A stretch of 64,000 bases of DNA, taken from NCBI RefSeq assembly GCF_965641715.1, contig NZ_OZ282453.1; one strand, given 5' to 3'. Made by a program: the position numbers. Below are positions 41,901-47,900 of the stretch, in pieces. Source of the DNA: Escherichia coli. Its GTDB lineage: Bacteria > Pseudomonadota > Gammaproteobacteria > Enterobacterales > Enterobacteriaceae. Each line of letters starts with the position of its first letter. Within the stretch, counting starts at the first letter, position 1.

Positions 41901-44900
41901 GTTAGCACTGGAATCGTCAAAGCTGTCTTTCAGACTGTCTTTCACTTTCACTTCGTTTTCAGTATGGCGCTGGGCAGCAACCAGACGTTCGGTCAGGCTG
42001 GTGTACAGGCCGCTGTCGAGGAAGTTGGTCAGCGAAATATGCTGTGCCTGCGGAACCTGGCGCATAGCGCGTTCGGTCAGGTCACGGTGAGTGATGACGA
42101 GGTCCACATCTGGCGGCAGGTTGTTGATCGCGCTGTTAGTGACCGAAATCTGCGACAGACCTGCATCCTGAATTTTCTTACGCAGCACGCCTGCGCCCAT
42201 CGCACTTGAACCCATACCGGCGTCACAGGCAACGATGATTTTACGTACGTGGCTCAGGTCGTTAGTCACATCGCCCGCAGACAGCGGAGATGCACCTTTA
42301 GACTCAGCTTTCATGTCCTGCATACGACGAGTTGCTGCTTCAATATCATCTTCTTCTTTCACTTTGCTGGTTTTCAGCAAAATAGCAGAGACAACAAAGG
42401 AGACAGCCATCGCCGCACACACACCCGCGATGTTAGCGAAATAAGCACCTTTTGGTGTCATCGCCAGTACAGCAAGGATAGAACCCGGAGATGCCGGAGA
42501 AACCAGACCACCGCCCAGGATAGTCAGCGTGAACACGCCAGTCATACCGCCGAGGATAACGGCCAGGATCAGACGCGGATTCATCAACACATACGGGAAG
42601 TAAATTTCGTGGATACCACCCAGGAAGTGGATAATTGCCGCACCGCCCGCAGACTGTTTAGCGCTACCACGACCAAAGAACATGTACGCCAGCAGCACGC
42701 CCATACCCGGACCTGGGTTAGCTTCAATCAGGAAGAATATGGATTTACCCAGTTCATGGGACTGCTGAATACCCAGCGGCGAGAAGATACCGTGGTTAAT
42801 GGCGTTGTTGAGGAACAGGATTTTCGCCGGTTCAACAAAGATAGACGCCAGCGGCAGCATGTCATGGACAACCATGAAGTTAACGCCCGCAGCCAGCATT
42901 TTGGACAGGGCTTCAACAATCGGGCCAATGCCGAGAAATGCCAGAATGGCGAGGATCATCCCGATGATGCCTGCGGAGAAGTTATTCACCAGCATCTCAA
43001 AACCGGATTTGATCTTACCGTCTACCCAGCGGTCGAAGTGCTTAATGCACCAGCCGCCCAGCGGACCTGCAATCATAGAACCGAGGAACATCGGCATGTC
43101 TGCGCCGACGATAACGCCCATGGTGGTGATGGCACCGACTACGCCGCCACGTTCGCCGCCTACCAGCTTACCACCGGTATAACCGATCAGCAGCGGCAGG
43201 AGATAAGTGATCATCGGCCCGACCAGCTTCGCCAGCGTCTCGTTCGGTAACCACCCTGTTGGAATAAATAACGCGGTGATGATACCCCACGCGATAAACG
43301 CGCCGATATTTGGCATCACCATGTTGCTGAGGAAACGACCAAAGCTTTGCACTTTGATCTTAATATCGGATGACATAAAAACACCCCTTCTTATGTTTGC
43401 TGTCGCGCAGGCTGGAAGCCCGAGGTTTTTTGTTAATGTGGCGGCAGAGGTAGCCGGACCTTGTAGATACTGCGAAATCTGGCACTGAATCGGTTAACTG
43501 TCCAGTCGACGGCCTTTTGTGTGATATCAATCACATAAATATAGGGGGTAGAGAGGTAATTGACGTGACGTTCATCACAAAACGCTTGTGTAAAAAAGCA
43601 ACAAGGCGGCGATTTTCGCTAAAAATGGCATTTAAATGTGAGTAGTGTCACATTTTTGTTTTGATGGTTTGTTGAATCTTTGTGATCTGAATCACAAGAT
43701 ATTTTCTTACGGCGTTCACCTGATGTGATCTACAGCATGTTATGCCTTCGTCATACAATCGTTATGTAACTAAGCAACTCATCACCTCTAAAAATTATTC
43801 TTTGGTGTTATGGCGAGAATCGCGAACCCGGATTATTGTCAAAATATCAGCCTGACTCCCTTCTGGCTGCCAGCCAAAAAACAACACTGATAAACGTGAA
43901 TCCGAGGCAAATATGTTTCTAAACTATTTCGCGTTGGGAGTGCTGATCTTCGTCTTTCTGGTGATTTTTTATGGAATCATCGCGATACATGACATCCCTT
44001 ATTTGATTGCCAAAAAGCGCAACCATCCCCATGCCGACGCTATTCATACGGCGGGCTGGGTGAGCCTGTTTACTCTGCATGTTATCTGGCCGTTTCTGTG
44101 GATCTGGGCGACGCTCTATCAACCGGAGCGCGGCTGGGGCATGCAGTCACATGTTGCGTCGCAGGAGAAAGTGACTGACCCGGAAATCGCCGCACTTTCT
44201 GACCGAATTTCCCGGCTGGAGCACCAACTCGCCGCCGAGAAAAAGACTGACTATTCCACGTTCCCGGAGATCTAATTATGGATCTATTGATTGTTTTAAC
44301 TTACGTGGCGCTGGCGTGGGCGGTCTTTAAAATCTTTCGTATTCCGGTGAATCAATGGACGCTGGCGACGGCGGCGCTGGGAGGCGTGTTTCTGGTGAGT
44401 GGTTTGATTTTGTTGATGAACTACAACCACCCTTACACTTTTACCGCGCAAAAGGCTGTGATAGCGATCCCCATCACGCCACAGGTGACGGGAATTGTTA
44501 CTGAAGTCACTGACAAGAATAATCAGCTTATTCAAAAGGGCGAGGTGCTTTTTAAGCTCGACCCGGTTCGTTACCAGGCGCGAGTTGACAGACTTCAGGC
44601 TGACCTGATGACGGCGACGCATAATATAAAGACGCTGCGCGCGCAGCTCACTGAAGCGCAGGCCAACACCACCCAGGTTTCAGCGGAGCGCGACCGTCTG
44701 TTTAAAAATTATCAACGTTATCTGAAAGGCAGCCAGGCGGCGGTGAATCCGTTCTCGGAACGTGACATCGACGATGCGCGGCAAAATTTCCTCGCGCAGG
44801 ATGCGCTGGTGAAAGGCTCGGTGGCGGAGCAGGCGCAGATCCAGAGCCAGCTCGACAGTATGGTCAACGGCGAGCAATCGCAGATTGTGAGCTTAAGAGC

Positions 44901-47900
44901 GCAACTTACTGAAGCAAAATATAATCTTGAGCAGACTGTCATTCGCGCACCAAGCAATGGCTACGTCACTCAGGTACTGATCCGCCCAGGCACATACGCA
45001 GCTGCCTTGCCGTTGCGTCCGGTGATGGTTTTCATCCCCGAGCAAAAACGGCAAATTGTCGCCCAATTTCGGCAAAACTCGCTGTTACGTCTGAAACCTG
45101 GTGATGATGCGGAAGTGGTGTTTAACGCGCTACCTGGGCAGGTGTTCCACGGCAAACTGACCAGTATTTTACCTGTCGTGCCAGGCGGTTCTTATCAGGC
45201 GCAGGGGGTATTGCAATCATTAACGGTCGTGCCCGGCACGGACGGTGTGCTGGGAACCATTGAACTGGACCCTAACGATGATATCGATGCCTTACCCGAC
45301 GGCATTTACGCCCAGGTGGCAGTTTACTCCGACCATTTCAGCCATGTTTCGGTGATGCGGAAAGTGCTGCTAAGAATGACCAGCTGGATGCATTATCTTT
45401 ATTTGGATCATTGAGACTTATATCACCTGTGTTTTGCGTGAGCCTGAGCCATACTGATATTTTTCCTCGCACAAAGGACTCGGCATGAAACTCGTCGGTA
45501 GCTACACCAGCCCGTTTGTACGCAAACTTTCTATTCTGTTGTTAGAAAAGGGCATAACTTTCGAATTTATTAATGAACTGCCCTATAACGCGGACAACGG
45601 CGTGGCGCAATTTAACCCGTTAGGAAAAGTGCCGGTGCTGGTGACCGAAGAGGGCGAATGCTGGTTTGATTCGCCGATCATCGCTGAATATATTGAATTA
45701 ATGAATGTCGCTCCGGCGATGTTGCCGCGCGATCCGCTGGAGTCGTTGCGGGTGCGCAAAATTGAGGCACTGGCGGATGGCATTATGGATGCCGGGCTGG
45801 TATCGGTGCGTGAACAGGCGCGTCCAGCGGCGCAGCAGTCTGAAGATGAATTGTTACGCCAGCGGGAGAAAATCAACCGTAGTCTGGATGTGCTGGAAGG
45901 ATATCTGGTCGATGGCACACTTAAAACCGATACGGTCAATCTGGCGACGATCGCCATTGCCTGTGCCGTCGGATATCTCAATTTCCGCCGCGTTGCGCCA
46001 GGCTGGTGTGTCGACCGCCCACACTTAGTCAAACTGGTCGAAAACCTGTTTAGCCGCGAAAGTTTTGCTCGCACCGAACCGCCAAAGGCTTGATGCGCGA
46101 TATGTCCTCCTGACCCATCTCACGTTACAATCCGTGGTTATGTTAAACGCCCTTCTCCGTGTGAGAGGGCCTTGATCAGCCAGGTTTCCTATGACAACCG
46201 AAACGCGTTCCCTCTATAGTCAACTTCCGGCTATTGATCGCTTATTGCGCGATAGCTCCTTCCTTTCTTTGCGTGATACTTATGGTCACACCCGCGTGGT
46301 GGAATTGCTGCGTCAGATGCTTGACGAAGCGCGAGAAGTGATTCGTGACAGCCAGACGCTTCCCACGTGGTGTGAAAACTGGGCGCAAGAAGTCGATGCC
46401 CGGTTGACGAAAGAGGCGCAGAGCGCGCTGCGTCCGGTGATAAACCTGACGGGAACCGTGCTGCATACCAATCTTGGGCGAGCTTTACAGGCGGAAGCTG
46501 CGGTGGAAGCCGTTGCGCAGGCTATGCGTTCGCCAGTGACCCTCGAGTACGATTTGGACGACGCCGGACGCGGACATCGCGATCGGGCGCTGGCGCAGCT
46601 GCTGTGCCGCATTACCGGCGCGGAAGATGCCTGTATCGTTAATAACAATGCGGCGGCGGTGTTATTGATGTTGGCGGCCACTGCCAGCGGGAAAGAGGTG
46701 GTGGTTTCTCGCGGCGAATTGGTGGAGATTGGCGGCGCGTTTCGTATTCCCGATGTTATGCGTCAGGCAGGCTGCACACTATACGAAGTAGGGACCACCA
46801 ACCGCACGCACGCGAATGATTATCGTCAGGCGGTGAATGAAAATACCGCACTGTTGATGAAAGTACATACCAGTAACTACAGCATTCAGGGGTTCACCAA
46901 AGCGATAGACGAAGCTGAACTGGTGGCGCTCGGCAAAGAGCTGGATGTTCCAGTGGTGACTGATTTAGGCAGTGGCTCGCTGGTCGATCTTAGCCAGTAC
47001 GGTTTGCCGAAAGAGCCAATGCCGCAGGAGTTGATTGCGGCGGGCGTCAGTCTGGTGAGCTTCTCCGGCGACAAGTTGTTAGGCGGGCCGCAGGCAGGGA
47101 TTATCGTTGGTAAAAAAGAGATGATCGCCCGCCTGCAAAGCCACCCGCTGAAGCGTGCATTACGCGCGGATAAAATGACCCTCGCGGCGTTGGAAGCCAC
47201 GTTGCGTCTTTATTTACACCCTGAAGCTCTGAGTGAAAAATTACCGACCCTGCGCCTGCTTACCCGCAGCGCAGAGGTCATTCAAATCCAGGCACAACGT
47301 TTACAGGCTCCCCTTGCCGCACATTACGGCGCGGAGTTTGCGGTACAGGTTATGCCATGTCTTTCGCAGATTGGCAGTGGTTCGCTGCCGGTTGATCGCC
47401 TGCCGAGCGCGGCATTAACGTTTACACCCCATGATGGACGCGGTAGCCACCTTGAGTCATTAGCCGCCCGCTGGCGTGAATTGCCAGTGCCGGTGATTGG
47501 TCGTATTTATGACGGACGATTGTGGCTGGATTTACGCTGCCTTGAAGATGAGCAACGGTTTTTGGAGATGTTGTTGAAATGATTATTGCGACTGCCGGAC
47601 ACGTTGACCACGGCAAAACAACCTTATTGCAGGCGATTACTGGCGTAAATGCCGATCGTCTGCCGGAAGAAAAAAAGCGCGGCATGACTATCGATCTCGG
47701 CTATGCCTACTGGCCGCAGCCGGATGGCCGCGTGCCTGGTTTTATCGACGTACCCGGTCATGAAAAGTTTCTTTCCAACATGCTGGCGGGCGTTGGTGGT
47801 ATCGATCACGCGCTGTTGGTGGTGGCGTGCGATGACGGCGTGATGGCACAGACCCGTGAGCATCTGGCGATTTTGCAGCTGACCGGTAACCCGATGCTGA

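Follow-up and report, generated by a model that had tools for sequence, protein, structure and literature searches.

The yibI-yibH and yiaW-yiaV gene pairs of Escherichia coli, two copies of a conserved DUF3302-adaptor module without a conserved pump beside it

Several of the described export systems rely on a periplasmic adaptor of the HlyD family. In EmrAB-TolC (PDB 8zal/8zar), the adaptor EmrA works with a pump of the major facilitator superfamily (MFS) that has 14 transmembrane (TM) helices, and in MdtNOP and MacAB-TolC the adaptors dock TolC or NodT-type channels, the energising component being the FUSC-type MdtO in the former and the ATP-binding cassette (ABC) protein MacB in the latter. 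The operons AaeX-AaeA-AaeB and YdhI-YdhJ-YdhK carry a FUSC pump, and in them the gene of an EmrA/AaeA-like adaptor is immediately preceded by that of a tiny membrane protein. AcrZ, also a small protein, has a single TM helix and binds a resistance-nodulation-division (RND) pump; it is not obligatory, and its gene lies apart from acrAB. Here we describe two gene pairs of this general kind, yibI-yibH and yiaW-yiaV, each formed by a gene for a small DUF3302 membrane protein followed by one for an HlyD-family adaptor. Both are found in a stretch of 64,000 nucleotides of the Escherichia coli chromosome (NCBI RefSeq assembly GCF_965641715.1, contig NZ_OZ282453.1), which is referred to as the window throughout.

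The pair shares something with each of these systems and coincides with none of them. YibH has its closest fold in EmrA, which is also its closest sequence in the PDB (E 2e-11); however, the gene partner of YibH encodes a DUF3302 protein with 2 TM helices instead of a 14-TM MFS pump. The layout of AaeX-AaeA-AaeB and YdhI-YdhJ-YdhK, with the tiny membrane protein in front of the adaptor, is reproduced, whereas DUF3302 loci lack the FUSC pump of those operons. Among the NCBIfam models, MdtN is one of the two that YibH matches best (111 bits, cutoff 376), and MacA is its next-best fold match after EmrA, but neither a FUSC-type protein comparable to MdtO nor an ABC protein comparable to MacB is linked to the pair. 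The DUF3302 protein is, like AcrZ, a small helical protein of the inner membrane, from which it differs in having two TM helices, in being highly conserved and in being encoded directly upstream of the adaptor. The module appears, thus, to be a conserved transporter-less variant of the tripartite adaptor systems. A previous sequence-only reading of the window had called an adaptor without an adjacent transporter, coupled to a tiny membrane protein, unusual; this holds for the missing pump, but not for the gene layout, which is also that of the AaeX and YdhI operons.

The small protein, its adaptor and their pairing

The order of genes in this segment of the chromosome is mtlA (minus strand), yibI and yibH, then yibF, selA, selB, yiaY and aldB, followed by yiaW and yiaV, and finally yiaU (minus strand) and yiaT. 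The best match of the window among complete RefSeq genomes reaches 99.3%. The first module comprises yibI (43913-44275; 120 amino acids) and yibH (44278-45414; 378 amino acids), and the second one yiaW (53011-53334; 107 amino acids) and yiaV (53340-54476; 378 amino acids). The four open reading frames (ORFs) are all on the plus strand and lie where the sequence-only reading had put them, in two copies about 9 kb apart (43913-45414 and 53011-54476; 9,098 bp from start to start), and RefSeq agrees with their names and boundaries. The gene spacing, given in that reading as 2-5 bp, is 2 nt in yibI-yibH (TAA-tt-ATG) and 5 nt in yiaW-yiaV (TAA-tactt-ATG).

The family labels assigned to these proteins were borne out by Pfam. 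Both small proteins match the DUF3302 profile PF11742 (a 77-position model with a gathering threshold of 32 bits), YibI with 140 bits over positions 1-76 and YiaW with 147 bits over positions 1-77. YibH and YiaV contain the HlyD-type domains CusB_dom_1 (56.7 and 56.2 bits, respectively; cutoff 26.5), HlyD_D23 (42.1 and 44.5 bits; cutoff 30) and HlyD_3 (33.2 and 27.2 bits; cutoff 22.2).

The DUF3302 family comprises 878 clusters at 50% identity and reaches Bacteroidota and Campylobacterota, with the core consensus HDIPY.IAK.RNHPH.DAIH.AGWVSLFTLH.IWPFLWIWA. Conservation is strongest in the His/Asp/Arg-rich tip that joins the two helices (H26 D27, R36 N H38 P39 H, D42 and H45) and in the second TM helix (W49, S51, H56, W59, P60, W63 and W65), with mean column values of 0.87 for the loop and 0.89 for the helix. 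The AlphaFold2 model of YibI (pLDDT 87 overall, 91-97 for residues 1-70) predicts a helical hairpin, with helices at residues 2-35 and 41-68 and the invariant RNHPH as its tight turn, and beyond it a poorly conserved linker and a C-terminal helix (residues 90-115). Judging by hydropathy and charge bias, the K/R-rich tip would face the cytoplasm, with both termini on the periplasmic side. When compared with the PDB by Foldseek, the small protein had no significant match (best E = 5, GldL), and sequence searches of the PDB yielded only coiled-coil noise. Homology of DUF3302 to DUF1656 (PF07869), the family of AaeX and YdhI, was considered and rejected: hhalign of the DUF3302 alignment against one DUF1656 protein gave a probability of 0.5% and 1 aligned column, and the likeness is one of gene layout only. 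Among the proteins of the family, P0202 has the DUF3302 core joined straight to a sequence resembling the C-terminal helix of the adaptor (...RMSSWMNYVFLEH), and looks, as far as its sequence can tell, like the product of a fusion of both genes by internal deletion.

DUF3302 and adaptor constitute an obligate, tightly coupled two-gene module. Their association was followed in 174 loci, obtained from 73 Enterobacterales genomes, 80 metagenomic contigs (the best 80 of about 600 or more genomic matches), annotated chromids and look-ups of divergent members; four of the most divergent members sit on contigs of ~1 kb without gene context. The scan of genome contigs, ranked by score, returned Enterobacterales only; it served to date the duplication but gave no lead on a partner. 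The DUF3302 gene is directly followed by that of a dedicated adaptor in 163 of the 164 loci with enough downstream sequence. The commonest spacing in non-enterobacterial loci is a 1-nt overlap of stop and start codons, which suggests that translation of the two genes is coupled. In a chromid of Salinivibrio kushneri (L092), the adaptor gene that follows DUF3302 is split by an IS4-family transposase; no other pair in the annotated loci is clearly broken.

The adaptor found beside DUF3302 is a dedicated subfamily of the EmrA-type periplasmic adaptors. The AlphaFold2 model of YibH (pLDDT 86) shows two predicted N-terminal TM helices (residues 2-19 and 26-50), a lipoyl domain, an alpha-hairpin (residues 97-218), a beta-barrel and a terminal helix (residues 355-374), and has no membrane-proximal domain. 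When compared by Foldseek, the top matches of this model are, by a wide margin, EmrA chains from cryo-EM structures of EmrAB-TolC (E 4e-22, TM-score 0.63-0.69), followed by MacA, AcrA and MexA, and the top 50 matches are all periplasmic adaptors. YibH and EmrA have in common the lipoyl domain, the long alpha-hairpin, the beta-barrel, the anchor in the inner membrane and the lack of a membrane-proximal domain, and they differ in that YibH, only ~19-20% identical to EmrA, has two N-terminal TM helices instead of one and an extra C-terminal helix, which is amphipathic and conserved. The nearest families by sequence are EmrA/EmrK (TIGR00998; YibH scores 113.5 bits, cutoff 390.8), MdtN (NF007785; 110.9, cutoff 376) and AaeA (NF007850; 75.1, cutoff 400), with similar values for YiaV. 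Judged by these scores, far under the cutoffs, YibH and YiaV resemble the three families but are not members of them. The model TIGR01730 (RND_mfp; cutoff 94.9), on which YibH obtains 99.9 bits and YiaV 88.1, is broad and gives little information on the partner.

Two signatures of the adaptor are maintained from E. coli to Bacteroidota, one in the N-terminal TM hairpin (M[DE]LLI..Y....FK[IV]F[KR][IV]PVNKW[TS]..T..LGG....L..MNYNHP) and the other in the C-terminal helix (HV..[MI]RK.LLRM.SW.NY.F..H), the alpha-hairpin being the least conserved region. Taking into account that the invariant residues (W27, M47, Y49, H51, P52, R361, R366, M367 and W370 in the adaptor) are mostly membrane-proximal, the functional core of both proteins lies in or at the inner membrane. 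A direct comparison is offered by one genome (L086), in which an AaeXAB-type cassette with an outer-membrane channel gene is located 3 kb from the DUF3302 cassette: unlike the DUF3302-linked adaptor, the AaeA-like adaptor encoded there has one TM helix and lacks such a terminal helix.

Genomic neighbours and possible role of the module

The neighbours of the pair were clustered in 84 loci, 73 of them from outside the enterobacteria, which had been collected separately from the scan of Enterobacterales genomes. Apart from genes of the enterobacterial synteny, only two families recur, a NodT/TolC-type outer-membrane factor and an NhaP2-like antiporter. The gene of the outer-membrane factor abuts the pair on the same strand, at a distance of 2-43 nt and in both gene orders, in seven independent lineages (the protein of locus L134 reaches 305 bits on TIGR01845, cutoff 210), and cassettes made up of just channel, DUF3302 and adaptor are present in several phyla. 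A gene for the membrane domain of an NhaP2-like K+/H+ antiporter is found beside the pair in about six lineages (loci L075, L086, L104, L119, L121, L134 and L156), and in four of them (L086, L104, L119 and L156) it lies on the same strand within two genes of the pair. The order is antiporter, DUF3302, adaptor and channel in L156, and DUF3302, adaptor, channel and antiporter in L086. A polyphosphate kinase 2 gene is also near the pair in L094 and L134. Both recurrent neighbours are almost confined to loci with a short adaptor (~319 amino acids), the one exception being L075, which combines a long adaptor with a convergent antiporter gene.

No RND, ABC, MFS or FUSC pump is conserved beside the pair in the loci surveyed, nor is any adjacent to either pair in the window, as had been noticed before. 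The missing transporter is not a local oddity of E. coli: of 34 independent loci from outside the enterobacteria in which each flank spans at least 1.5 kb, 27 have neither the channel nor the antiporter, and the lack of a pump is a conserved property of the whole DUF3302-adaptor family. In Gamma- and Alphaproteobacteria, the pair is found by itself in surroundings that are unrelated, for instance next to dnaJ, a DEAD-box helicase gene, sugar operons or SulP. A mechanosensitive channel gene also figures among the neighbours recorded, and families other than the two recurrent ones adjoin the pair only now and then. Single lineages have an RND operon, an MCE/LetB-like protein or HupE/UreJ upstream of it, the RND operon being of AcrB type and directly upstream (L165/L166). 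In E. coli, no outer-membrane factor gene adjoins the pair, and tolC is located elsewhere. None of the four proteins matched the anti-phage defence models of PADLOC.

The preferred reading, which we put forward tentatively, is that the pair may be the inner-membrane and periplasmic part of a TolC-dependent conduit for export or release. It is supported by the obligate pairing, the EmrA-type fold, the conserved membrane cores, the channel genes inside the cassettes, the absence of a conserved pump and the selection acting on both copies. According to this proposal, the adaptor would oligomerise like EmrA and MacA, which are hexamers, and its alpha-hairpin would dock an outer-membrane channel, namely TolC in E. 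coli and the cassette-encoded NodT-type protein in other phyla. A bundle formed by the DUF3302 hairpins and the TM hairpins of the adaptor would take the place of the RND, ABC, MFS or FUSC pump, and the outcome would be an envelope-spanning conduit through which a small substrate is exported or released. The protonatable His/Asp cluster would be a candidate site for gating or coupling, and a connection with cations or pH is hinted at by the NhaP2-like antiporter genes that recur beside the pair. A more detailed version is conceivable, although unlikely in all its particulars: a further class of TolC/NodT-dependent envelope-spanning system free of any conventional transporter, in which a ring built from the TM hairpins of both adaptor and DUF3302 (2+2 helices per protomer pair) would itself constitute the inner-membrane unit, gated or energised via the invariant His/Asp/Arg cluster and releasing a small solute or ion, sometimes together with the NhaP2-like antiporter.

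Several points weigh against such a conduit. The ties of these proteins to TolC, to each other and to any substrate are inferred ones, and what is predicted of the complex, of its stoichiometry and of the small protein's topology draws on hydropathy, charge bias and monomer models. A unit of 2+2 TM helices has no evident energy-coupling machinery. Most loci, including both of those in E. coli, have no adjacent channel gene, and the in-cassette channels are confined to the short-adaptor clade. The deletion of yibH is well tolerated, to the point that the gene has been used as a neutral integration site in work on histidine production (PMC5852967), and it is therefore dispensable in the laboratory. 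Moreover, given the recurrent antiporter and the RND operon that immediately precedes the pair in one lineage, a transporter acting in trans stays plausible.

This last point leads to the main rival explanation, on balance rather unlikely and kept alive by the recurrent antiporter, according to which the pair would be an orphan adaptor module at the service of some conventional transporter encoded elsewhere (MFS, FUSC/PET, ABC, RND or an NhaP2-type antiporter), with DUF3302 as an accessory protein in the manner of AaeX/YdhI or AcrZ. All characterised adaptors act with a transporter, and the families nearest to YibH are EmrA/EmrK, MdtN and AaeA by sequence and EmrA by fold. The antiporter genes of about six lineages, four of them with the gene on the same strand within two genes, and the AcrB-type operon of L165/L166 would provide candidate partners, and cofitness data show that DUF1656 proteins act with adaptor and FUSC components (bioRxiv 10.1101/072470). 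However, no transporter family is conserved beside the pair, most loci with both flanks have neither recurrent neighbour, and several phyla have cassettes limited to channel, DUF3302 and adaptor. In addition, the adaptor has a conserved TM hairpin of its own, and the most conserved residues of both proteins are at the membrane, which goes beyond what would be expected from an accessory role; nor is DUF3302 homologous to the DUF1656 proteins with which the comparison is made.

As regards phenotypes, the function of the pair is, as the sequence-only reading had stated, not known from databases or literature, and DUF3302 is rarely named in the searchable literature, without any functional account. 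The genes and their family labels are already catalogued in RefSeq, Pfam and TCDB; in the latter, YiaV is entry 8.A.1.1.4, described as 'uncharacterized' (PMC10971958), and yibH and yibI were counted among the uncharacterised y-genes in a 2024 survey (PMC11551758). In uropathogenic E. coli, yibI is induced by urine, and its mutant has a competitive index of 0.33 and weaker adhesion to bladder cells (PMC5404293). In a screen of Keio transporter mutants, the yibH knockout was among the 15 most sensitive strains of one table, together with acrB, tolQ, tolR and mdtN (PMC9405208); the caption of this table names ornidazole while its top strains match the azithromycin figure, and we take it as one unverified hit. 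Deletion of yibH in Klebsiella lowers plaquing by evolved phages (PMC11796411), and yiaV is up 1.5-fold in the response to biofilm colonisation (PMC3646849). The phenotypes related to urine, drug sensitivity and phages are weak leads for the role of the pair.

Some of these phenotypes, adhesion and phage plaquing, are properties of the envelope, and could be invoked for a different explanation, which we consider improbable: that the pair is not an exporter but a scaffold or sensor of the envelope, either a tether spanning the periplasm or a regulator of ion or pH homeostasis that senses metal or pH through the His-rich cytoplasmic tip. The conserved His/Asp/Arg cluster at the tip of the hairpin, the frequently ion-related neighbours (NhaP2-like antiporter, HupE/UreJ, SulP and mechanosensitive channel) and the lack of an apparent energy source would all fit such a role. 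Nevertheless, the adaptor retains the full EmrA-type architecture, including the alpha-hairpin used for docking TolC-type channels, and NodT channel genes of efflux type are embedded in the cassettes of seven lineages.

Paralogy and history of the two copies

The likeness between YibI-YibH and YiaW-YiaV is far beyond chance and extends over the full length of the proteins. YibI and YiaW share 74% amino-acid identity (E 1e-61), and 74 of their first 80 residues are identical, in keeping with the near-identity claimed for this region. YibH and YiaV, described before as clearly paralogous, are 77% identical across all 378 residues without a gap. The pairwise alignment at protein and DNA level, which had been proposed as a check, thus disposes of the objection that the similarity might be confined to a short motif. 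At the DNA level, yibH and yiaV are 69% identical, with 84, 46 and 221 differences at the first, second and third codon positions, respectively. Synonymous sites are saturated (pS, the proportion of synonymous differences, ~0.8) and the non-synonymous divergence (dN) is low, 0.18 for the adaptor and 0.046 for the DUF3302 core (Nei-Gojobori method), and therefore the duplication is old and both copies are under purifying selection. Between the paralogues, the C-terminal helix of the adaptor is 96% identical and the TM hairpin 83% identical. The similarity of the two modules in DNA stops at the gene boundaries, and the upstream regions of yibI and yiaW do not align.

The first module, yibIH, is the ancestral and nearly universal copy. 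The arrangement of mtlA, the DUF3302-adaptor pair and yibF-selAB is widespread among the Enterobacteriaceae, being found in Klebsiella, Raoultella, Kluyvera, Leclercia, Lelliottia, Enterobacter, Citrobacter and Escherichia, and every single-copy enterobacterial adaptor is nearer to YibH (79-93%) than to YiaV (73-79%). The neighbour-joining tree puts the YiaV clade outside the rest of the enterobacterial adaptors. Only Escherichia, Citrobacter and Pseudocitrobacter have the second copy, located between aldB and yiaU, and in Leclercia, Lelliottia and Enterobacter aldB directly abuts yiaU-yiaT. Among 5,426 complete E. coli genomes, yibIH is present in 5,424 and yiaWV in 3,800. Those without yiaWV (~30%) usually lack the whole yiaW-yiaV-yiaU-yiaT block, so that aldB abuts GH127/MFS genes. 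The absence of this block was read in strain S7 (L176) and in CFSAN064036 (L175), and one genome lost the block by an IS1-associated deletion that reaches into the yiaK-S operon. The GC content at third codon positions is 0.47-0.54 in the yiaW-yiaT block versus 0.60-0.65 in yibIH, with values of 0.47 for yiaW and 0.65 for yibI, and YiaW is the more conservative of the two small proteins. Thus, yiaWV is a later copy inserted between aldB and yiaU, faster-evolving and dispensable in about 30% of E. coli. It may have arisen by local duplication followed by acceleration, or by acquisition from elsewhere.

That the second copy is a redundant duplicate on its way to becoming a pseudogene, or that the likeness comes down to a shared motif, is hardly credible and is ruled out here, since in this window the frames are intact and the pattern of substitutions speaks against it: the absence of yiaWV from a part of the E. 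coli genomes and the long branch of YiaV would agree with decay, but YibH and YiaV are equally long, identity spans the complete proteins, dN is low against saturated synonymous divergence, the C-terminal helix and the TM hairpin are maintained between the paralogues, and orthologues of yiaWV are kept in Citrobacter and Pseudocitrobacter.

Two other observations were made in the enterobacterial loci. Citrobacter sp. MGH106 (L061) and NCU1 (L071) have a third DUF3302-adaptor copy, followed by a LysR-type regulator 32-34% identical to YiaU. A contig titled 'Chryseobacterium sp. 18061' (L015, CACSKA010000004.1) carries an enterobacterial locus, with mtlA (91%), a yibIH-type pair and then yibF, selA and aldB, and is nearly identical to L014, which comes from the same project and is labelled Citrobacter; L015 is probably a mislabelled or contaminated assembly.

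Surroundings of the modules and significance

The region between mtlA and yibI (43377-43912, 42% GC) is the presumed promoter region of yibIH. The region between aldB and yiaW (52468-53010, also 42% GC) contains a REP-like (repetitive extragenic palindromic) stretch at ~52500-52585, recognised by direct reading, just upstream of a 54-amino-acid ORF with a hydrophobic stretch (52685-52849, minus strand; hypothetical in RefSeq), and then an AT-rich segment presumed to be the promoter region of yiaWV. Scans for promoters and terminators around both modules gave matches no commoner than in shuffled sequence. Downstream of the second module, yiaU (54473-55447, minus strand), which encodes a LysR-type regulator and is convergent with yiaV, and yiaT (55571-56311, plus strand), which encodes a MipA/OmpV outer-membrane protein and is the last gene of the variable block, complete the yiaWVUT presence/absence unit. 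The coding ends of yiaV and yiaU overlap by 4 nt (54473-54476), and both genes have been catalogued as a convergent excludon pair of E. coli (PMC12288877). YiaU was considered as a regulator of yiaWV and discarded, its published regulon containing yiaT and waa genes, and not yiaW or yiaV (PMC9068703). Downstream of the first module, yibH is directly adjoined by yibF (junction 45415-45484), unlike in E. coli K-12, where rhsA, yibJ, yibG and yibV have been reported between them (PMC11551758), and therefore the strain of the window lacks the RhsA element at this site. Unrelated to the pair, an ORF of 1,629 amino acids (32469-37358, minus strand) corresponds to a protein that RefSeq annotates in the closest genome as a YadA-like trimeric autotransporter adhesin.

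Taken by itself, the duplication is ordinary. What is new here is the pairing in nearly all the loci examined, the recognition of a hairpin-anchored adaptor subfamily, the channel and antiporter neighbours, and the distinction between an ancestral and an accessory copy. All four genes are part of the 'y-ome', the uncharacterised share of the genes in the best-studied bacterium, and efflux inventories of E. coli list YibH and YiaV as adaptors without a known pump. Seen as an obligate and widespread unit, sometimes provided with its own channel gene, the label of 'putative efflux component' becomes a testable model. The difference between the core and the accessory copy guides which of them should be deleted first, the deletion of both being needed to uncover a phenotype. 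Finally, if the transporter-less reading is true, the module would add a new architecture to the tripartite export systems.

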